NCBI GenBank assembly: GCA_963422345.1
Contig: OY729425.1
Location: 2,287,156-2,351,155 of the forward strand
Reading direction: 5' to 3'
Source: an uncultured Sphingomonas sp.
Lineage (GTDB): Bacteria > Pseudomonadota > Alphaproteobacteria > Sphingomonadales > Sphingomonadaceae
Length of the DNA stretch: 64,000 bases
In this document: positions 48,874 through 61,342 of the stretch, in pieces
Layout: each line of letters starts with the position of its first letter
How positions within the stretch are numbered: position 1 is the stretch's first letter
The notes under the pieces: model-generated
The model's database searches: none
Told to the model about the DNA's origin: nothing
The model's input: only the letters and a program-made list of their open reading frames with translations
Program-made: the position numbers and the translations under genes

Positions 48874-49927
48874 GAGCGCGCTGCGAATAGGTGGAATCGA
48901 ATGTGGATTCCCAAGGGTGCCTGGATGTGATTCAAGCTTTGGGCTGGGTTTGGAGGCCAGCCCTTATGCCACGAGCCTATTCTCAGGATTTGCGTGACCG
49001 GGTGATCGATGCGGTGGTCCGGGGTGGCGAGAGCCGCCGCTCTGCGTCGCGACGATTTGGCGTGAGCGAGGCATCGGCGATCAAGTGGGTTCAGCGCTAT
49101 GAGCGCGCCGGCGACCGGTGCTGTGCGGGTACCGGCGGCCACCGGCCATCAAAGGTGAAGCCGGAGCGCGACTGGTTACTGGCGGTGATCGCTGCTGAGC
49201 CCGACATCACGCTGGCGGCGTTGTCGGCACGGTTGCTCGCCGAACGCGGCGTGCGGGCCGATACCGGCATGTTATCGCGCTTCTTCGTCGGTGAGGGCAT
49301 CAGCTTCAAAAAAAAGCGTGCTGCCCTCAGAACAGGATCGGCGCGACGTGGCCCGACGGCGGGCGAGCTGGAAGCGCTATCAGGGCCGGCTTGATCCGCG
49401 GCGCCTCGTCTTCATCGACGAAACCTGGGCGAAGACCAACATGACGCGCACCCATGGCCGCTGTCGCCGGGGCGAGCGGCTGCGCGCCAAGGTACCGCAT
49501 GGCCACTGGAAGACGCTGACCTTCCTCGCCGCACTCCGCTGTGACCGGATCGACGCGCCGGCCGTGATCGACGGCCCGATCAACGGGCAAAGCTTCCTCG
49601 CCTATGTCGAGCAGTTCCTGATCCCGACGCTCAAGCCGGGTGACATCGTCATCCTCGACAATCTCGGCAGCCACAAGGGTGAGGCGGTGCGCAACGCCGT
49701 TCGGGCGGCTGGCGCAAGGATCCTGTTCCTCCCGCCCTACAGCCCCGACCTGAACCCCATCGAACAGGTCTTCGCCAAGCTCAAAACGCTCCTGCGTAAA
49801 GCCCAGGAGCGATCCGTCGAGGCAACCTGGCGGCGCATCGGATCGCTCCTCGATGCCTTCTCACCTCAGGAATGCGCCAACTATCTCAGAAACTCAGGCT
49901 ATGCGTCAATCTAATCACAAAATGCTC
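48874..49927 (+). mobile_element. IS630-family insertion sequence (1054 bp) with TA target duplication
   Basis: TA at 48872-48873 and at 49928-49929. The 17-bp imperfect IRs GAGCGCGCTGCGAATAG / GAGCATTTTGTGATTAG match at 11 of 17 positions. Confidence 0.92.
48966..49914 (+). CDS. IS630 transposase in two frames joined at an A8 run (49308-49315)
   Basis: ORF1 starts MPRAYSQDLR (HTH). ORF2 carries the DDE motifs FIDET, ILDNLGSHK and PPYSPDLNPIE. Confidence 0.9.
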
Positions 49928-51794: not shown

Positions 51795-52670
51795 ATGGCA
51801 TTAAGGTCGATACGAAAACTGACCCTGGCGGGAAGTGCCGCGCTTTCATTGCTCATTGCGGCGGCGGCTCCGGCGAAGACAATCCTGTTTATCGGCAACA
51901 GCTTTACCCAGGGCGCACACTCCGCGGTGCGTGCCTATCGGCCTGATCTGGTTACCGATCTCAATGGCACACGGATTGGTGGCGTGCCGGCATTGTTCAA
52001 GACCTTTGCCGACGAGGCAGGGCTGAACTTTACCGTCAGTCTTGAAACCGATGGCGGAAAGGGGCTGGAGTTCCACTATGCCACAAAGCGGCAGGTGATC
52101 GATCGCGCCTGGGATGTTGTCGTGTTGCAAGGCTTCAGCACCCTCGACCGCAAAAACCCCGGCGACCCGACGATCCATGTTGAAAATGCTGCGCTGCTGG
52201 CCGCAATGTTCAAGCGCGCCAACCCGGCAGCAGAGATCAACCTTGTATCGACCTGGTCACGCGCCGACCTGACCTATCTCTCCACCGGGCACTGGTACGG
52301 TCGGCCGATCACCGCCATGGCCGATGACCTGTCGGCCGCGACGCGGCTCGCGCTTCGGACATCCGCCAATATCAAACAGGCGGTTCCGGTTGGCGCGGCA
52401 TGGAACAGGGCCTTTGCTGAAAAGGTCGCTGATCCGAACCCCTATGATGGAACCAGCTTTGGCCAGGTCGATCTGTGGACCTATGATCAATATCACGCGA
52501 GTGCCGCAGGCTATTATCTTGAGGCGCTGGTGTTGTTTGGCAGGATTACCGGTGTTGACCCGGTCATGCTTGGCAAGCAGGAAAAGGCCGCCGACGCGCT
52601 GGGGCTTTCACCAACACTGGCCGCAGACCTGCAACGGATAGCGCGCGACACGCTGGCGGCGGAACGCTAG
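51795..52670 (+). CDS. Secreted SGNH/GDSL-like hydrolase (DUF4886-like)
   Basis: Signal peptide, ILFIGNSFT, WDVVVLQG and DQYH (DxxH). Confidence 0.7.
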   Translation: MALRSIRKLTLAGSAALSLLIAAAAPAKTILFIGNSFTQGAHSAVRAYRPDLVTDLNGTRIGGVPALFKTFADEAGLNFTVSLETDGGKGLEFHYATKRQVIDRAWDVVVLQGFSTLDRKNPGDPTIHVENAALLAAMFKRANPAAEINLVSTWSRADLTYLSTGHWYGRPITAMADDLSAATRLALRTSANIKQAVPVGAAWNRAFAEKVADPNPYDGTSFGQVDLWTYDQYHASAAGYYLEALVLFGRITGVDPVMLGKQEKAADALGLSPTLAADLQRIARDTLAAER

Positions 52671-52927
52671 ATTTCGTCATCATCCTCGATCATGATGCCA
52701 TCGCGGCGACAGGTTGCGTGACACCCCCCTTGGCAATCATGCCGGTCGCGTTGGCCGGGGTGACCGGGTATCTCGATCAGGACGTGATGACCGAGACAGC
52801 TTTGCACGACCAGCCAATCGCTGGTCATTGGCAGGGCTTGCACCCCACCGGCAAAGGCGAACCCGATGCCGCCCAGCGCCCCGGCGATGATGTTGCGGGA
52901 CGACCTAGCCAACATGTTCATTGTCAT
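52667..52927 (-). CDS. Small exported Cys/His-rich protein overlapping the ccoS 3' end
   Basis: Hydrophobic N-terminus ending GVQA, then SCLGHH, DCQGGCHATC and an acidic tail. It fills the gap on the cco strand; the start may be 52927 or 52915. Confidence 0.6.
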   Translation of the reverse strand: MTMNMLARSSRNIIAGALGGIGFAFAGGVQALPMTSDWLVVQSCLGHHVLIEIPGHPGQRDRHDCQGGCHATCRRDGIMIEDDDEI

Positions 52928-53060
52928 CGTCGATCAGGATGCGGATCGCCGCCCCGTCAAGATCATCAAACTGCGCGGACCGTACCGCCCAGAAAAATGC
53001 CGCGAGGCCTGCTAACCCCAGGGCAAGTGCAATCGGGATAAGAAAGGCAACGCCAGTCAT
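52905..53060 (-). CDS. ccoS: cbb3-type oxidase maturation protein CcoS/FixS (51 aa)
   Basis: Manual translation: MTGVAFLIPIALALGLAGLAAFFWAVRSAQFDDLDGAAIRILIDDDNEHVG. ATGA overlap with ccoI. Confidence 0.93.
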   Translation of the reverse strand: MTGVAFLIPIALALGLAGLAAFFWAVRSAQFDDLDGAAIRILIDDDNEHVG

Positions 53061-55201
53061 CGCGCCGCGCTCCGCAACCGCAGGGCGTTGGCGACAACCA
53101 GCAGGGAAGAACCCGACATCGCCAATGCCGCAATCAGCGGTGTCACCATGCCAGCCATCGCAAGCGGCACGGCAAGGAAGTTATAGACAATCGCCAGCGC
53201 GAAATTCTGCCGCACCACCCGCATGGTCCGCCGCGCCGCAACGACGGTCAGCGGCACTGGCATCAACGCGTCACCAAGGAACACGGCGTCTGCCGCCATC
53301 TGCCCGACATCGCTGGCCGATGCCGGCGCCATCGCAACCGAGGCGCGGCGCAATGCCGGTCCATCGTTAAGGCCATCACCGACCATCAGCACATGATGCC
53401 CGGCCTGCTCCAGCGCAGCGACCGCCTCATGCTTTTCCGCCGGTGACATGCGGGCGGATCCGGGAATGCCAAGGTCGGTTGCGAGTTGGTCGACCACCGC
53501 AATGCTGTCGCCCGAGACAAAACGCGGCGACAACCCGAGCGCTGACAACTGTTTGATCGCCGCGTGCGCATCCGGTCGCACGGTGTCACTGAATTCGACG
53601 CGAAAGACCGGCCCCGTGCCAATGCGAAAGACCGCTTCGGTCGATTCCGCATGGTCCGGCTCCGTGACTCGATTGACCCAGTCGGCGCGGCCAAGCCTGA
53701 TCTGATTGCGACCAAACATTGCCTCGATCCCAAGACCTGGCCGCTCATTCACGCTGCTCACCGCCACCGGGACGACCGAGCCATCCAGCGCCCTTGCGAT
53801 CGCGCGGCTCAACGGATGCCGGCTCACCCGGGCAAGGGAAAGCAACAGGCCGCGTGCGGTAGCATCACTTGGTAATCCACGGGTCGGGTGGAGCTGGCCG
53901 AGCGTCACGGTGCCGGTCTTGTCGAGCAGTACCCGGTCAACCACAGCAAGCCGTTCCAGGGCCGCGCCGTCCTTGATCAATACGCCGACACGCATCAGCG
54001 CTCCTGTGGCCACAACCTGCGCGATCGGGACGGCAAGCCCCAGCGCGCAGGGGCAGGTTATGATCAACACCGCCACCGCCGTCATCAGCGCAGCATGAAG
54101 CCCCGCCCCGGCCATCAACCAGCCAACCAGGGTCAGCGCCGCCAGTGTATGGACCGCCGGCGCGTAAAGCCGCGCAGCGCGGTCGGCGATCCGGACATAG
54201 CGCGACTTGCCCTGCCCCGCGCTCTCCATCAGCCGGGCAATATCGGCAATCGCGGTGGAAAGCCCGGTAGCCGTTGCCCGCACGACCAATGGCGCGGCCA
54301 GATTCACTGTGCCCGCAAGAACAGCAGAGCCCGTCGCAACGCTCTCGGGCAAACTCTCGCCTGTCACCAGCGCCCGATCGACGCTGCTGTCACCCTGTTC
54401 AACAATGCCATCAACGCCAATGCGCTCACCAGCCGCGATCAACACACGCATCCCCGGTGCCAGTTCTTCGGCAAGGCGCCGCTGCGTGGTACCATCTGGC
54501 AACAAGACCAGCGCATCACGCGGAACGCGCCGCAACAGCGCGGCAACACCATCTCGCGCTTTTGCCCGCATCACACTGTCAAGGGCACGTCCGGCAAGCA
54601 GGAAAAACAACAACATTACGGCGCCGTCGAAATAGGCATGGGCGCCGCCCGTCACGGTCTCATACAGGCTCATTGAAACGGTCAGCACCACGCCGATTGA
54701 AATTGGCACATCCATGTTGGTGGTACCGTGTCGAAGCGCGCGCCACGCACTCCGGAAAAACGGCTGACCGGCATAGGCAACTGTCGGCAGGGCGATGAGC
54801 GCAGAGAGCCAGTGGAACAATGCGCGCGTGCTGCCTTCGGCGCCCGACCAGATCGATACCGACAACAGCATGATGTTCATTGCGGCGAACCCGGCCACTG
54901 CCAACGCCAGCAACAACCCGCGACTTTCAGCATCCGCTGCGCCATCCGCTTCACCTGCGAAAACATGCGCGCGAAACCCCAACCCATCAATTGCGGCGCG
55001 AAGTGCCTCTTCATCGGGCACGTCGAGATGTTCGATCACAATGCGGCCAGCGCCGAAATTTACCCGCGCCGCAATCACGCCGGGCAAGGCGACCAGTGCG
55101 CCTTCCAGCTTCGCGATACAGCCAGCGCAACGCATCCCCTCAACAACAAAGGTTGAGCGTATCGCCGCCACCCCCGGGCCGATCGCGCCGAGTGACGTCA
55201 T
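53057..55201 (-). CDS. ccoI: Cu-type P1B ATPase CcoI/FixI
   Basis: HMA motif CAGC, TGES, CPCALG, DKTGT, GDGLND. Confidence 0.93.
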   Translation of the reverse strand: MTSLGAIGPGVAAIRSTFVVEGMRCAGCIAKLEGALVALPGVIAARVNFGAGRIVIEHLDVPDEEALRAAIDGLGFRAHVFAGEADGAADAESRGLLLALAVAGFAAMNIMLLSVSIWSGAEGSTRALFHWLSALIALPTVAYAGQPFFRSAWRALRHGTTNMDVPISIGVVLTVSMSLYETVTGGAHAYFDGAVMLLFFLLAGRALDSVMRAKARDGVAALLRRVPRDALVLLPDGTTQRRLAEELAPGMRVLIAAGERIGVDGIVEQGDSSVDRALVTGESLPESVATGSAVLAGTVNLAAPLVVRATATGLSTAIADIARLMESAGQGKSRYVRIADRAARLYAPAVHTLAALTLVGWLMAGAGLHAALMTAVAVLIITCPCALGLAVPIAQVVATGALMRVGVLIKDGAALERLAVVDRVLLDKTGTVTLGQLHPTRGLPSDATARGLLLSLARVSRHPLSRAIARALDGSVVPVAVSSVNERPGLGIEAMFGRNQIRLGRADWVNRVTEPDHAESTEAVFRIGTGPVFRVEFSDTVRPDAHAAIKQLSALGLSPRFVSGDSIAVVDQLATDLGIPGSARMSPAEKHEAVAALEQAGHHVLMVGDGLNDGPALRRASVAMAPASASDVGQMAADAVFLGDALMPVPLTVVAARRTMRVVRQNFALAIVYNFLAVPLAMAGMVTPLIAALAMSGSSLLVVANALRLRSAAR

Positions 55202-55656
55202 GAATGCACTTCGTCGGCAAAGCGCGCATGGTCAGCGCCAGAAACTATGTCGATGTTGAGCAACCACCGCCCTGCCGGCAGCGCCTGCACGCTGGCATAT
55301 TGGCCGTTACCGCTGTCCTGCAAGATCAACACGCGTGCGGGCACCCGGCCGAGCGGATGGCTTGCCTCGATCGTCACATACGCGCCAGAAACCGGGCGAC
55401 CCACACGCGCCAGGGAGAGTGTCACCGTACCACCCGGGCCATTCCCCGGCTGGGCACTCCAGCCTTGATGCTTCTGCGCGCGTGCCTGTGCCAACCAGCC
55501 ATTATATTGCTGGCTAGCGACATAGCTGTTGTCGACCACCGTGCCGCCAAAAGTACGGATCGCGTCCGTTGCCATCAGCACATTCACGGCAATTACCACG
55601 CCAAAAAAAGCGCACATGATGGCTGTCATGTGCCAGCCAGTGAAGCGGCGCGTCAT
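55198..55656 (-). CDS. ccoH: FixH/CcoH family protein
   Basis: FTGWHM..FFGVVIAVNVLMA..GTVVDNSYVASQQYN. Confidence 0.9.
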   Translation of the reverse strand: MTRRFTGWHMTAIMCAFFGVVIAVNVLMATDAIRTFGGTVVDNSYVASQQYNGWLAQARAQKHQGWSAQPGNGPGGTVTLSLARVGRPVSGAYVTIEASHPLGRVPARVLILQDSGNGQYASVQALPAGRWLLNIDIVSGADHARFADEVHS

Positions 55657-57161
55657 TGGTGATCCTCCTCAGGCCGTTCAAAATAACTGGCATCACTCGC
55701 CGAGCCACCTTCAGCGTCGAGTGCGCGCGCGGTAAAACGCATTGGCACGCGCTCCTCCCCAACCCCGCTTGCCACGACGAACAGCTGGACCCGCGCCACC
55801 TGATCGGTCCCAACAGACACGTGAATGGTGCTCCCGGCATGATCGCGCCGATCATTTTCCTCCCACATCACACCATCGACGCCAGACAGGGCGAGCTCAA
55901 CCTCGCGGGGCCGCTCCTCCATGTTACGGATCTTCACGACATAGCCGTTACGGATGCTGCCATCTGACAGGCGAACCCATTGCGGATTGCGCGCCTGCGT
56001 CACGCTCAGGTCGATCCGCGTGCGATTGCCGAGCGCAAACAACATCGCCAGTCCGATGCTGGCCCAGACGGAGAAGTAGATGATGGTGCGCGGGCGCAAC
56101 AGGCGGCGCAGCGGCGACAGCGGCAACTCGCCGCGGATCGCCCGGCGCGCATCCAGGTCTGTCGTATAGCCGATCAACCGCGCAGGACGACCAACCTTCG
56201 CCATAATGTCATCACAGGCATCGATGCACAGCGCGCAGGTAATACACCCGATCTGCGGCCCCTCCCGAATATCGATGCCTGTCGGACACACCGCAACACA
56301 GGCGTTGCAATCGATGCAATCACCAACCCTGGCCGGATCGTCGGCGCCCGCAGCCATCGCCGCCAGATCAACCGAACCGCTCTTCGCGCCGGTTTCGGCC
56401 CGCTTCAGACCATGGGTGCGGGGTTCGCCACGCCAATATTTGTAGGTTACGTTCAGCGATTGCTCGTCGAGCATCGCGCTCTGGATCCGCGGCCAAGGGC
56501 ACATATAGACGCACACCTGCTCACGCATCAGCCCGCCAAGGGTGAATGTCGTGAAGGTCAGTACGGCAACAGTTGCATAGGCGACGTAGGGCGCTGTGCC
56601 TTCGACGAAAGCGCGCGCCAGGGTTGGTGCATCGGCAAAATAGAAAATCCATGCACCGCCGGTCAGTACCGCAATAAGCAGCCAGATCGCAAACTTCACG
56701 CCGCGCCGGGCGACCTTTCCGGCACTCCACGGTGCTGCCAGCAACCGCATTTGCGCATTGCGGTCCCCGTCGATCAGCCGTTCCACATGGACGAAAAGAT
56801 CGGTCCACACTGTCTGCGGGCAGGCATAGCCGCACCACGCCCGCCCGAAAGCCGAGGTAACGAGGAACAAGCCGATCGCCGCCATAATCAACAGACCGGC
56901 AACATAATAGAATTCGTGCGGCCAGATCTCGATGGCGAACATGTAGAAGCGGCGATGTGCCAAATCGACCAGCACAGCCTGGTTGGGCGCATAAGGGCCA
57001 CGATCCCACCGAAGCCAGGGCGTGATGTAATAGATCGCCAAGGTGACCGCCATGATCGCCCATTTCAAGCGACGAAACGACCCCTTCACGCTCTTCGGAA
57101 ATATTTTTCGTCGGGCCTCAAAAAAATGTTCCGGCTCTGTCAGGTCGATGGGATGGGTCAT
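55653..57161 (-). CDS. ccoG: Cytochrome c oxidase accessory protein CcoG/FixG
   Basis: GRAWCGYACPQTVW, QVCVYMCPW, CIDCNACVAVCPTGIDIR, CITCALCIDAC. Confidence 0.95.
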   Translation of the reverse strand: MTHPIDLTEPEHFFEARRKIFPKSVKGSFRRLKWAIMAVTLAIYYITPWLRWDRGPYAPNQAVLVDLAHRRFYMFAIEIWPHEFYYVAGLLIMAAIGLFLVTSAFGRAWCGYACPQTVWTDLFVHVERLIDGDRNAQMRLLAAPWSAGKVARRGVKFAIWLLIAVLTGGAWIFYFADAPTLARAFVEGTAPYVAYATVAVLTFTTFTLGGLMREQVCVYMCPWPRIQSAMLDEQSLNVTYKYWRGEPRTHGLKRAETGAKSGSVDLAAMAAGADDPARVGDCIDCNACVAVCPTGIDIREGPQIGCITCALCIDACDDIMAKVGRPARLIGYTTDLDARRAIRGELPLSPLRRLLRPRTIIYFSVWASIGLAMLFALGNRTRIDLSVTQARNPQWVRLSDGSIRNGYVVKIRNMEERPREVELALSGVDGVMWEENDRRDHAGSTIHVSVGTDQVARVQLFVVASGVGEERVPMRFTARALDAEGGSASDASYFERPEEDHQ

Positions 57162-57167
57162 GTGGCG

Positions 57168-58103
57168 TCAAGGTCTCGCAACGGGTGTCGCCGGTGTCAC
57201 CAGCGCGCTTTCAGCGACTTTCGTCGGGGAAGCCTCACCACCCCCGCGCGAGTGAACATAGACCGCGAGCATCTTGATCGTGATCGGATCAAGCCGTCGC
57301 CCCCAGGCCGGCATGATACCATAACGCGCATTGGTGATGGTCTGGGTCAACGTCTCCCGATTGCCACCATAAAGCCAGATCTGGTCGGTCAGGTTCGGGG
57401 CACCAAGCGAGCGGTTACCGCGCGCATTGTCACCATGACACACCGCGCAATTGGCGGTGAACAGTGCCGCGCCGCGCCTTGCCGATGCGTTGGCCGCATC
57501 CTGACGGGAAACAAAACGAACATAAGATACAAGGTCACTGATCTCAGCGGGCTTCAGGATACCGTCGCGACCAAATGCCGGCATTTGCGACATGCGCGTC
57601 GCGTCATCACCCGGCTGACGCACACCGTGCAGCAAGGTCTGCTGGATCGTGGCAATATCCCCGCCCCACAACCAGTCATCATCGTTGAGATTGGGGTAGC
57701 CCTTGCCTCCAGCGGCGCCCGATCCATGGCATTGCACACAATGAAGGCTGAAAGCGGAATGACCGCCCTCCTCCGCCGCGCGCTGCAAGGCCGGATTCTT
57801 CGAGATCGCCTCAATCGGCGTCTGCGCCAGCGCCTGCATTATCGGTGCCTTGCGCTGTCGATCAGCGGCCAGCTCCTTTTCAAGCTGTCCATGGCTCGTC
57901 CAGCCCAATGTCCCTGGCGTCGCCGAATTCAACCCGGGCAACGCCGGATAGAGCACACAATAGACGATGGCGAATATGATCGTCGCATAAAGAATATACA
58001 GCCACCAGCGCGGCATCGGCGTATCGAGTTCCTCGATCCCGTCCCATTCATGCCCGACGGTTTTTGTGCCGGTCGGCTGGTCGATCCGAACGCCATCAGC
58101 CAT
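57168..58103 (-). CDS. ccoP: cbb3-type cytochrome c oxidase subunit III
   Basis: GHEWDGIEELDTPMPRWW; two haem motifs, CVQCH and CAVCH. Confidence 0.96.
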   Translation of the reverse strand: MADGVRIDQPTGTKTVGHEWDGIEELDTPMPRWWLYILYATIIFAIVYCVLYPALPGLNSATPGTLGWTSHGQLEKELAADRQRKAPIMQALAQTPIEAISKNPALQRAAEEGGHSAFSLHCVQCHGSGAAGGKGYPNLNDDDWLWGGDIATIQQTLLHGVRQPGDDATRMSQMPAFGRDGILKPAEISDLVSYVRFVSRQDAANASARRGAALFTANCAVCHGDNARGNRSLGAPNLTDQIWLYGGNRETLTQTITNARYGIMPAWGRRLDPITIKMLAVYVHSRGGGEASPTKVAESALVTPATPVARP

Positions 58104-58257
58104 CGATCTGCTCCTCTTCGAAGATGCTGGTCGCAGCACGTTGATGGTCGTGCGGCGCCTGGGGCCGGAAGGTCCAGCCTATGAATGTGAGGAACGAGAC
58201 CCCCATCAGGACCAGGCCCCAGCTATCGGCAAAGGTGCGCAATGATTCGTAGATCAT
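58096..58257 (-). CDS. ccoQ: cbb3-type cytochrome c oxidase subunit CcoQ (53 aa)
   Basis: Manual translation: [53 protein letters not shown]. Lies between ccoO and ccoP. Confidence 0.92.
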
Positions 58258-58988
58258 TTGCTGCGCTCGCGCGGCGCCGCCGCCTTGAAATCGACCTCAG
58301 TGCCAAGCACCTGCAGATAGGCGACCAAGGCATCCATCTCGGTCAGCCGGGACGGGTTACCATCATAGTCGCGTGAAGCGGCCTTGGGATAACGTCGTGC
58401 CAGATCTGCCGCATTGCCATCACCGCCAGCCTGCCCCGCCAGATCTGCAGACGCCTTGCTGATGTCCTCGTCGCTGTAGGGAACACCGACGTGGCGCAGC
58501 GCTTTCAGATGATCACCGATATTGGCGACATCAAGATCGCGTTCCGCCAGAAAGGCATAGCGCGGCATGATCGATTCAGGCACCACCGCGCGCGGATCGA
58601 GCAAATGCTGGACGTGCCATTCATCGGAATAGCGCCCACCCACCCGCGCCAGATCTGGCCCGGTGCGCTCGGAACCCCATTGGAACGGGTGGTCGTACAT
58701 GCTTTCGGCGGCGAGGCTGTAATGGCCGTAACGCTCCACCTCGTCGCGGAACGGGCGGATCATCTGGCTGTGACAGCCATAACATCCCTCGCGGATGTAG
58801 ATGTTGCGGCCAGCCAGCTCGAGCGGCGTGTAGGGCCGCACGCCATCGACCTTGGTCACGGTCGAGTCGATCCAGAACAGCGGTGCAATCTCGACAATCC
58901 CGCCAATGGCGACGACCAGTAAAGCGAGGACAGCGAGCAATGTGACGTTGCGTTCAATTGCCTTGTGGCGGTGCAGGAAGGAAGCCAT
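58254..58988 (-). CDS. ccoO: cbb3-type cytochrome c oxidase subunit II
   Basis: [31 protein letters not shown]. Confidence 0.97.
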
Positions 58989-58998
58989 TGCGCGCTCC

Positions 58999-60663
58999 TC
59001 AGTTGGTGGTCGCGGCGGCGAGCGGCATCACGGGCCGGTCGTGCTCGGGATCATAGATGGTCGTGGCGAGCGGTGCTTCGGCGCGCAGCTTGCCGGCAAT
59101 GGTCATGGCGACGTTCCAGACCATGAACAGGGCGCCGACGAAGTAGAGCAGTCCCCCGCCGATGCGCATCACATAGTATGGATGCAGCGCGGCCACGACC
59201 TCGGCGAACGAATAGACCAGGTAACCGTCCGACCCATATTCGCGCCACATCAGGCCCTGGGTAATCCCCGCCACCCACATCGAGGAAGCGTAGAGCACGA
59301 TGCCGAGCGTAGCGCACCAGAAATGCCAGTTGATCATGCGCAGCGAATAGAGGCGTTCACGGCCCCACAGACGCGGCGTCATGAAGTAGATCGCGCCGAA
59401 GGTGATCATGCCGTTCCAGCCGAGCGCGCCCGAGTGAACATGGCCAATCGTCCAGTTGGTATAGTGGCTGAGCGAGTTGACGCTCTTGATCGACATCATT
59501 GGGCCTTCGAAGGTCGACATGCCGTAAAAGGCGAGCGCGAAAACCATCATGCGGATGATCGGATCAGTCCGAATCTTGTCCCAGGCGCCGTTGAGCGTCA
59601 TCAGGCCGTTGATCATGCCACCCCAGCTCGGCATCCACAGCATCACCGAGAAGACCTCGCCCAGCGTCTGCGCCCAGTCGGGCAGCGCGGTATAATGGAG
59701 GTGATGCGGACCCGCCCAGATATAGAGGAAGATCAGCGACCAGAAATGGATGATGGACAAGCGGTAGCTGTAGATTGGTCGCTCAGCCTGCTTCGGCACG
59801 AAATAATACATCATGCCGAGGAAGCCCGCAGTCAGGAAAAATCCGACGGCGTTGTGGCCGTACCACCACTGGGTCAGGGCATCCTGTACTCCGGCAAAGG
59901 CAGAATAGGATTTCGAACCGAGCCAGGACACCGGCAACGAAATATTGTTGACCAGATGCAGCATCGCAACGGTGATGATGAAGGCGAGGTAAAACCAGTT
60001 GGCAACATAGATATGCGGTTCCGAACGCTTCACGATCGTCCCGACAAACACTGCCAGGTAACTGACCCAGACAATTGTCAGCCAGATGTCGACATACCAT
60101 TCCGGCTCGGCATATTCCTTGCCCTCGGTGACGCCCATCAGATAACCGGTGGCGGCCAGGACGATGAACAACTGATACCCCCAGAACACGAAGCGAGCCA
60201 GCGCCGGTGCAAACAGGCGCGCGCGACAGGTGCGCTGGACGATATAGAAACTGGTACAGATCAGCGCGTTGCCACCAAAAGCAAAAATCACGGCTGAGGT
60301 GTGCAACGGCCGCAAGCGACCAAAGGTTGTGAAATCATAGTTGAGATTGAGCAGCGGGAAGGCCAACTGCGAGGCGATGACGATGCCGACCAGGAAGCCA
60401 ACCACGCCCCAGAAAACCGTGGCGATCACGCCCCACCGAATGACATCGTCATAATAACGGCTCTGTACCGCCGCCCTGCCGGCAAGCGCGGCCGCCGGCT
60501 TTCCGAATTGTCGCGCGGTTACAAGACCGGCCAGCAGCGCCGCACTGGCGCAGATGGCCATATGAACGGCAAAGGCATGATCGACGGCCAGTGCCGCTGC
60601 AATCGTGCAAGCGAGGAAAAGGGCGAACCAAAGTCCACCGCGCAGTGCAATATCGTCGTCCAA
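58999..60663 (-). CDS. ccoN: cbb3-type cytochrome c oxidase subunit I
   Basis: [43 protein letters not shown]; TTG start. Confidence 0.97.
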
Positions 60664-60742
60664 CCGGCCCTCCCGCCATTCCCGTAGCGTGGAGGTGCTA
60701 TCTTATTGGCGGCGGACCGAGCCTATGCGTATTTACCCTTAG

Positions 60743-60756
60743 TTGCGCTGCATTCC
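60743..60756 (-). promoter_or_regulatory. Degenerate FNR/FixK-like box upstream of ccoN
   Basis: The minus strand reads GGAAT-GCAG-CGCAA against the consensus TTGAT-N4-ATCAA, 80 bp upstream of ccoN. Confidence 0.35.
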
Positions 60757-60766
60757 CCGGCACGCA

Positions 60767-61342
60767 TCAGCCGCGCAACCGGGTGACATAGGCCATCACA
60801 ACAGCGCGCGCCTGTTCAAAGCTCAATTGCTGTTCGCCCCGCAGTCTCTGCCAGGCAGCAAAACTCGTCACAAGATCAAGCAATTCAAAGACTGTTGAAT
60901 TTTCCGACAAAGTTTCCGGAACAAGCGAAACCAGCCGCGCCCGCATCAGGGCGAGCATTCGATTATTCTCTTCCTGGATTGCCGGTGAGATATGGCGATG
61001 CGCATCACCGGCGCGGCGGAACGGCAACAGCCGCTCATAGGTTGCGATACGCCGCTCAACCGCCTCGATCAGTTGGCCATTCCAGTCCTGTGCGGCAAAG
61101 GGTGCCAACCAATCCTCATACTGCCGCGCCAGCACAAGGGTCATCGCGGCATAGAGCGATTCCATATCCTTGAAATGGCGAAAGACCGTTCGCAAACCAA
61201 CCTGCGCCCGGGCGGCAACCTGTTCGGCGCTCGGGGTGATGGCCCCTTCCTCGACCAGTGAGAGCATCGCCGCAACGATGCTGTCACGACTGGTCCGCGA
61301 ACGCTTGCGCCGGCCATCCTCCGGCGCCTTGGCTGACGTCAT
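60767..61342 (-). CDS. TetR/AcrR-family regulator
   Basis: N-terminal HTH: SRDSIVAAML..PSAEQVAARAQVGLRTVFRHF.DMESL. Confidence 0.9.
   Translation of the reverse strand: MTSAKAPEDGRRKRSRTSRDSIVAAMLSLVEEGAITPSAEQVAARAQVGLRTVFRHFKDMESLYAAMTLVLARQYEDWLAPFAAQDWNGQLIEAVERRIATYERLLPFRRAGDAHRHISPAIQEENNRMLALMRARLVSLVPETLSENSTVFELLDLVTSFAAWQRLRGEQQLSFEQARAVVMAYVTRLRG

Follow-up and report, generated by a model that had tools for sequence, protein, structure and literature searches.

In an uncultured Sphingomonas sp., a 64-kb stretch of contig OY729425.1 (assembly GCA_963422345.1, positions 2,287,156 to 2,351,155; hereafter the window, by which we mean this whole stretch of DNA) carries the gene cluster of a cbb3-type cytochrome oxidase (cco), together with a small open reading frame (ORF) directly after ccoS, for which we use the working name X. 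X occupies 52667..52927 on the minus strand and encodes 86 residues, from an ATG at 52927 to a stop codon at 52667-52669; it matches the profile of its own family with an E value of 4.5e-19. The start of X sits 23 nt within ccoS, or 11 nt when counted from an in-frame ATG at 52915, as an earlier note on this DNA had described; another ATG in the same frame is at 52921. The stop codon of X shares 4 nt with that of a convergent gene on the plus strand (51795..52670), which encodes a 291-residue DUF4886/SGNH-like protein (PF16227, E 3.4e-8); X is thus the last gene of the operon in the window. The shared nucleotides form the palindrome CTAG (52667-52670), and there is no space for a terminator between the two genes.

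The predicted export signal of X spans residues 1-31 (52835..52927, minus strand) and consists of a basic start, MLARSSR, a hydrophobic stretch, IIAGALGGIGFAFAGG, and then VQA, after which the cleavage site was placed by reading the sequence, without a dedicated signal-peptide predictor. The 55 residues that follow VQA contain four cysteines and five histidines, the numbers given in the earlier note, and the N-terminal hydrophobic stretch, SCLGHH, HPG, RHDCQGGCHATC (C-x3-C-H-x2-C) and DDDE tail listed there are all present in the translation. The codon of Cys44 (52796..52798, minus strand) lies at the turn of a predicted β-hairpin and specifies the sole invariant residue of the wide family. 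The core motif, C65-QGG-C69-H70-AT-C73 (52709..52735, minus strand), is defined by conservation in a 117-sequence alignment, and the four cysteines of X are separated by 20, 3 and 3 residues. The canonical CXXCH haem motif is not matched, the motif of X being C-x3-C-H.

The genes upstream of X, all on the minus strand, form the canonical ccoNOQP-ccoGHIS locus, in agreement with the earlier assignment. Four of these genes are identified by Pfam: ccoS (52905..53060, 51 residues; PF03597 E 2.3e-19, TIGR00847 E 1.9e-20), ccoI, which encodes a P1B-type ATPase with an HMA domain (53057..55201; PF00122, PF00702, PF00403), ccoH (FixH; 55198..55656; PF05751 E 2.8e-34) and ccoG (FixG; 55653..57161; PF13746, PF11614). 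The block at 57168..60663 comprises ccoP (57168-58139), ccoQ (58096-58257), ccoO (58254-58988) and ccoN (58999-60663), which were taken from the ORF lists and named from their translations (CxxCH motifs and position), ccoN being the ORF from the first start codon.

X is a genuine and conserved gene, more than a chance ORF, since its dN/dS is 0.30 relative to the closest genomic homologue (G862, locus L067), its GC content by codon position (0.64/0.47/0.72) is like that of ccoI (0.70/0.51/0.71), and homologues recur at this position in numerous genera. When 1.84 billion representative proteins were searched with a seven-sequence profile (E <= 0.001), 74 clusters at 50% identity were recovered, nearly all of 60-100 residues, and in the databases the family is labelled only “hypothetical protein”. 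X has no Pfam or NCBIfam match, and no Pfam family is common to any two of 73 scanned members. PDB sequences gave no significant match to the family, the lone hit, to cytochrome c554 (E 0.23), falling over the signal region and not the motif. The ESM Atlas returned clusters of unnamed hypothetical proteins (0.92-0.93) and DUF2946 (0.79), the latter as a lead only. Literature searches found no published description of an X-like gene.

We analyzed the distribution of X in 301 genomes from 112 genera of the window's bacterial family, 159 of which have ccoS and 142 of which do not. Single-sequence searches were too insensitive for this purpose: a tblastn-like scan gave two credible homologues in 61 genomes and a word-indexed protein search gave five matches, or only 15 when it was run with a profile. 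With a narrow profile, 42 of the 301 genomes scored as X-positive, which understated the family. Inspection by position of 20 genomes that were positive for ccoS and negative with the narrow profile revealed a divergent X-like ORF directly 3' of ccoS in 14, and X after hemN in one more, and a broad profile was therefore built. With the broad profile, X is present in 132 of the 301 genomes and in 69 of the 112 genera; 126 of these 132 genomes have ccoS, i.e. 126 of the 159 ccoS-positive genomes versus 6 of the 142 ccoS-negative genomes, and four of the six matches without ccoS are weaker than 1e-5. The best match lies less than 400 nt from ccoS in 90 genomes and at 0.4-5 kb, mostly just after hemN, in a further 21 (together 111 of 132 within 5 kb); it is more than 5 kb away in four and on a different contig in five. 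In the remaining 12 genomes the ccoS position is unlisted or ccoS is absent, and in four of these X adjoins a gene for a ccoI-type ATPase. The start of X, on the same strand, also overlaps ccoS elsewhere, by 20 nt at locus L002 and by 4 nt at L032. The proposal that X is a ninth, coupled gene of the cco cluster is upheld by these data: X is a lineage-specific member of the cluster, confined to one bacterial family.

The neighborhood of X also includes hemN. Among 32 inspected loci from the narrow profile, X directly follows ccoS in 22 and hemN in 10; hemN is the next gene after X in nine of the 22 ccoS-X loci, and in 11 of the 14 loci found by position. In the window's genus, X was found in 31 of 151 genomes, and at 30 loci from this genus it stands after hemN in 16, after ccoS in nine, beside ompW in three and beside a tyrosinase gene in two. 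The larger gene order runs ccoGHIS, ompW (with or without usp), hemN and X, then a fnr/crp-like gene, usp or FixLJ-like genes. Thus the linkage to ccoS across relatives, which the earlier note had proposed to test, extends across the bacterial family, but the tie to hemN is about as tight, and X therefore belongs to a low-oxygen cco/hemN/fnr neighborhood rather than to ccoS alone. In Sphingopyxis granuli TFA, an operon described as FNR-activated, SGRAN_2449-2458, includes ccoHIS (2454-2456) and hemN2 (2458) (PMC7713065); the unnamed SGRAN_2457 in this operon is probably an X homologue.

X-like genes are also observed away from cco, beside genes for tyrosinases (PF00264), in four genomes: L057/L080 (G018), L085/L141 (G030), L135 (G254) and L136 (G201). 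Three genomes of the window's genus share an arrangement of a DJ-1/PfpI gene, a tyrosinase gene and an X-like gene (DJ-1/PfpI - tyrosinase <-> X-like), in which the motif has C-A-H replacing C-H. In the genome of another genus, the X-like gene is followed by a 141-residue ORF and then by the tyrosinase gene. An ArsC-family gene comes after the tyrosinase-linked X-like gene in G254 and G030. A 1.5-Mb alphaproteobacterial genome (G679, locus L045) has two tandem ORFs for small secreted Cys-rich proteins of 75 and 103 residues, which resemble X weakly (narrow profile E 1.1e-4, no match with the broad profile); this likeness is probably due to convergence.

Alignments of 7, 73, 97 (96 distinct) and 117 sequences reveal a common layout, in which a hydrophobic N-terminus is followed by a strand ending in Cys44, with Gly usually next, an “I-x-I-P” strand, a charged loop and the C-terminal motif D-C-P-x-G/A-C-H-A-x-C-x-R-R/K. 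A hydrophobic segment precedes Cys44 in 112 of the 117 sequences (12-residue window, Kyte-Doolittle mean >= 1.5). The residues kept in this set are C44 (117), C69 (115), H70 (114), P54 (112), R75 (103), C65 (101) and C73 (85), and the position before Cys69 is taken by G or A, both small, in 109. Conservation of both Cys and His had been proposed as a test; it holds for the Cys framework and for His70, but not to the other histidines of X, of which H47 is kept in 21, H48 in two, H56 in four and H63 in nine of the 117. The 14 copies found purely by position keep the same Cys framework. In the 96-sequence set, Cys44 is always accompanied by a Cys beyond the CH motif: C73 is present in 80, and all 16 sequences lacking it carry a later Cys, either at the next residue or in a C-terminal CC. 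Eight of the 96 lack C65, seven of which have just three cysteines and one a C-terminal C-x2-C. In the 117-sequence set, four cysteines follow residue 15 in 69 members and only three in 11; C-H is replaced by C-R or C-Q in three members and by C-A-H in two, CC-x3-C-H is a further variant, and a CC-x3-C subgroup comprises 13. Overall, six copies (L057/L080, L085/L141, L121, L135, L144 and L146) have an extra Ala that separates Cys from His, two of them within the 117-sequence alignment. No conserved Met pattern was found in the alignments. On the same alignments, a lipoprotein was rejected as there is no lipobox before Cys44, and a Tat-exported Fe-S protein was rejected as there is no conserved twin-arginine motif.

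An AlphaFold2 (AF2) model of X, made with the 97-row alignment, has a mean pLDDT of 69.5. The model predicts a β-hairpin at mature residues 6-11/17-22, a block with a pLDDT of about 92, followed by one helix, all within 55 residues. In relation to the periplasmic copper chaperones of cbb3 and aa3 oxidases, Sco/SenC and PCuAC/PccA, X would on our proposal share their compartment and pathway, and the ligand set of X, C-x3-C plus His, is like that of Sco. In contrast to Sco, which has a thioredoxin fold (PF02630), and to PCuAC (PF04314), which is characterized by H(M)x10Mx21HxM, X has neither of these folds and no Pfam match, and it displays neither such a Met pattern nor a comparable size (55 mature residues versus roughly 150-200). 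The window's own genome has one Sco and one PCuAC gene elsewhere, so X is an addition to these proteins and not a replacement for them.

Like Cox17, the copper chaperone of the mitochondrial intermembrane space, X is tiny, Cys-rich and predicted to be soluble on the outer side of an energy-transducing membrane. The CC-x3-C subgroup may be set beside Cox17, the copper site of which is CCxC. Unlike Cox17, X has no visible twin Cx9C motif and is predicted to form a hairpin plus a helix instead of a helical hairpin; no sequence relation between the two was found. Lineage-specific extra factors of cbb3 oxidases include CcoM of Pseudomonas stutzeri. CcoX/Y/Z of Campylobacter jejuni are further examples of additional small genes beside cco on which the oxidase of a single lineage depends or with which it is associated; these are different proteins from X, CcoZ resembling a supercomplex factor, and the abstract of PMC8267372 reports no Cys/His motif for them.

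The nearest described kind of protein to X is that of the CutF-like/DUF2946 proteins (PF11162), which include CutF of Rhodobacter capsulatus, CruR of Bordetella and CopL. These are small, Sec-exported proteins that have been shown to function in copper sensing and in which a CxxHC or CXXXC motif is central; their defining traits are a PP stalling motif at the C-terminus and a regulated gene downstream (PMC8456105, PMC9973294). X is similar in its length (86 residues, compared with <150) and its hydrophobic N-terminus, in the C65-x3-C69 of its family compared with the central CXXXC (CutF itself has C69xxH72C73), and in its copper-related surroundings; X and DUF2946 may also share a local “V-x-I-C-x-G” hairpin, and the X profile matches two DUF2946-type ORFs (E 5e-9 and 2e-7). 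Contrary to the CutF-like proteins, the C-terminal PP motif is found in only one of the 117 X members, and not in X of the window; X has no second hydrophobic segment; it often has no downstream gene, the next gene in the window being convergent; and cco and hemN are not among the CutF-like neighbors in the main text of PMC8456105 and PMC9973294. No PF11162 match was found in X or in the 73 scanned members. A remote relationship between X and DUF2946 is possible, judging from the sequences. Two DUF2946 (PF11162) genes lie elsewhere in the window's own genome (G000:C1:1594495-1594845 and 1825051-1825386). In relatives, DUF2946 proteins have a Pro-rich C-terminal end, LRPPLRGPP or the like, and at two loci (L137 and L142) their genes lie upstream of genes for TonB-dependent receptors, L137 also having a PepSY_TM gene; this arrangement is that described for copper-regulated upstream ORFs.

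A same-strand gene does follow X at the ccoS-X-hemN and hemN-X-fnr loci. At ccoS-X-hemN loci of relatives (L112-L129), as distinct from the window, X ends in “..FDPAQ*” and variants thereof, a tail that overlaps an FNR-like box, TTGA-N6-GCAA. In 9 of 11 loci this box is centered 42-43 nt ahead of the hemN ATG, irrespective of where X stops, so the tail is the in-frame reading of a DNA element constrained by hemN's own promoter. For hemN2 of S. granuli, a box is reported at −42.5 (PMC7713065). These observations suggest that an FNR promoter belonging to hemN itself lies within X, and the hemN mRNA is possibly leaderless. In the window, no promoter-like site was found upstream of X on its own strand, and no TTGAT-N4-ATCAA FNR box (<=1 mismatch) was found upstream of ccoN (60664-60900); the three such boxes in the whole window (39017, 44156 and 59486), compared with 1.4 expected, are near the chance level. 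Further along, at 48891-49914 on the plus strand, two overlapping ORFs of 167 and 207 residues are like the frameshift-split halves of an IS-type transposase, as judged from their translations.

A copper-handling role for X is plausible. The reading we favor, although we hold it tentatively and would not call it probable, is that X is a periplasmic, thiolate-based Cu(I) binder that acts downstream of the CcoI exporter in cbb3 biogenesis; what we infer here is that X is exported and binds a metal, as well as which metal this is and which proteins are its partners. X would be translated by coupling to ccoS and exported through a Sec-type signal, and the mature protein of ~55 residues would comprise a β-hairpin with Cys44, a loop, and a helix opening with C65-x3-C69-H70, plus C73 or a later Cys. 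Cys44, Cys65 and Cys69, perhaps joined by His70, would make up a Cu(I) site in the periplasm, and the additional Cys would be either a metal ligand or a disulfide partner. X may then accept or buffer copper exported by the CcoI ATPase on its way to the CuB site of CcoN, at a step parallel to or ahead of the Sco and PCuAC chaperones. We favor this reading because X is coupled to ccoI-ccoS and thus comes after the gene of a Cu(I) exporter, because its conserved Cys/His ligands are like the ligand sets of Sco and CutF, because its profile picks up ORFs of the copper-sensing DUF2946 type, because the odd number of cysteines in the 11 members with three means that they cannot all be paired as disulfides, and because X-like copies adjoin tyrosinase genes in four genomes of two genera. 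It would also fit an acknowledged gap in the hand-off from CcoI to the chaperones, direct transfer from CcoI-type ATPases to SenC/PccA being described as not established in a review (PMC7558416).

Several observations weigh against this reading. Metal binding by X is itself a proposal drawn from sequence; the helix that starts at Cys69 in the AF2 model has a pLDDT of only 61-67; and no solved structure like X was found, either by Foldseek against the PDB (best E 1.6) or in a wide VIA-align comparison (no chain with Z >= 2). The conservation counts stem partly from sequences that were collected by profile. Similarity to the DUF2946 proteins of the same genomes is weak and local, the hhalign probability being 31% for an alignment of 26 columns and 43% for one of 15. 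The window's own genome already encodes a PCuAC and a Sco, one of each. The two tyrosinase N-termini that were read have no visible signal peptide, so the tyrosinases and X are probably in different compartments. X is as common after hemN, which encodes a cytoplasmic enzyme of haem synthesis, as after ccoS, and hemN-X pairs occur apart from ccoS in two genomes (G065 and G298); X may thus be linked to the low-oxygen regulon in general. With the broad profile, 33 of the 159 genomes with ccoS have no match to X, and no credible X was found outside the family among ~400 other alphaproteobacterial genomes: the matches, 3 of 401, are the window's own genome, a genome of the window's genus and family (G018) and one with an internal stop (the narrow profile had given 4 of 401). 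Taken together, the ccoS genomes without X and the lack of X beyond the family imply that cbb3 assembly does not generally require X.

Among the alternatives, the least credible, and one to which we give almost no weight, is that X is a spurious, untranslated ORF in GC-rich DNA. X is indeed short, lacks an obvious Shine-Dalgarno sequence and overlaps two genes, but the dN/dS value, the same frame and motifs in 69 of the 112 sampled genera, and the 74 clusters in the global protein library all speak for a protein-coding gene. We also regard as very unlikely a role for X as a CutF-like, cis-acting sensor, in which co-translational export, modulated by copper in the periplasm, would determine how far the following gene (hemN or fnr) is translated. 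Such a role would account for the signal peptide and central CXXXC that X has in common with CutF-like proteins, its frequent position just upstream of hemN or a fnr-like gene, and the weak profile similarity to DUF2946. It is countered by the near absence of the defining PP motif (1/117), by the lack of a same-strand gene after X in the window and at several other loci, and by the FNR-like box in the DNA, which explains the conserved “..FDPAQ” tail of one subgroup. A mini c-type cytochrome, with haem on C65-x3-C69 and His70 as axial ligand, carrying electrons or haem for cbb3, is an improbable but somewhat better candidate. A CX3CH motif may accept haem, X is predicted to be exported, the Cys-His pair is near-invariant (115 and 114 of 117) with the first motif Cys less so (101), and the small residue before Cys69 is kept. 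Against haem binding are the members in which His is replaced by R or Q, the six copies with a C-A-H insertion, the absence of a conserved Met or second His as distal ligand, the lack of cytochrome Pfam matches (0/73 members), and the location of the motif, which opens a helix close to the C-terminal end of a peptide of 55 residues; the c554 hit, as noted, lies over the signal region.

Two other alternatives are unlikely but carry more weight than those above. X could be a metal-free, disulfide-stapled periplasmic peptide that joins cbb3 or CcoH/CcoG as an additional subunit, assists in their assembly, or acts as a thiol-redox partner. Periplasmic cysteines are usually oxidised, and most members have an even number of them, four after residue 15 in 69 of 117; moreover, the constant presence, along with Cys44, of a Cys after the CH motif would be expected of a hairpin-to-helix disulfide, and lineage-specific extra cbb3 factors have precedents, e.g. 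CcoX/Y/Z in Campylobacter (PMC8267372). The three-Cys members do not fit such a scheme, nor do a near-invariant His70 beside Cys69 and a C-x3-C at a helix start, which are typical traits of metal sites, and X is not similar to any known subunit. The second of these alternatives, to which we assign a similarly small likelihood, is a low-oxygen periplasmic role unrelated to cbb3 copper, for example in the handling of another metal or of a reactive species, X being co-located with cco, hemN, ompW, usp and fnr only through shared membership of the FNR regulon. The flanking hemN, ompW, usp, fnr/crp-like and FixLJ-like genes, the hemN-X pairs apart from ccoS, and the reported FNR activation of the cco-hemN2 region in S. 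granuli (PMC7713065) all point this way. The co-occurrence with ccoS (126 of 132 X genomes, compared with matches in only 6 of 142 ccoS-less genomes, four of them weaker than 1e-5) speaks against this alternative, as does the commonest arrangement, a direct overlap with ccoS.

Returning to X as a periplasmic Cu(I) binder, a bolder form of this reading, which we consider doubtful, is that Cu(I) passes straight from CcoI (CopA2-type) to X, as the missing acceptor in the periplasm, and from there on towards the cbb3 CuB site. X would then be a functional Cox17 analogue with its origin in a single alphaproteobacterial family, and its tyrosinase-linked relatives would have been redeployed; Cox17 itself is described as absent from prokaryotes (PMC7558416). 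In outline, the known copper route into cbb3 leads from CcoA, CopZ and CcoI to SenC/PccA and then to CcoN. X, as a conserved, translationally coupled and predicted exported Cys/His mini-protein encoded behind ccoI-ccoS, is an obvious candidate in sphingomonads for the step from CcoI to a periplasmic acceptor. With X, a well-known gene cluster gains a previously undescribed member that is restricted to one family. Even if it is no copper carrier, it is an unannotated gene carried by some four-fifths of the ccoS-positive genomes of a large and environmentally important family, and the X family merits its own family model and name.

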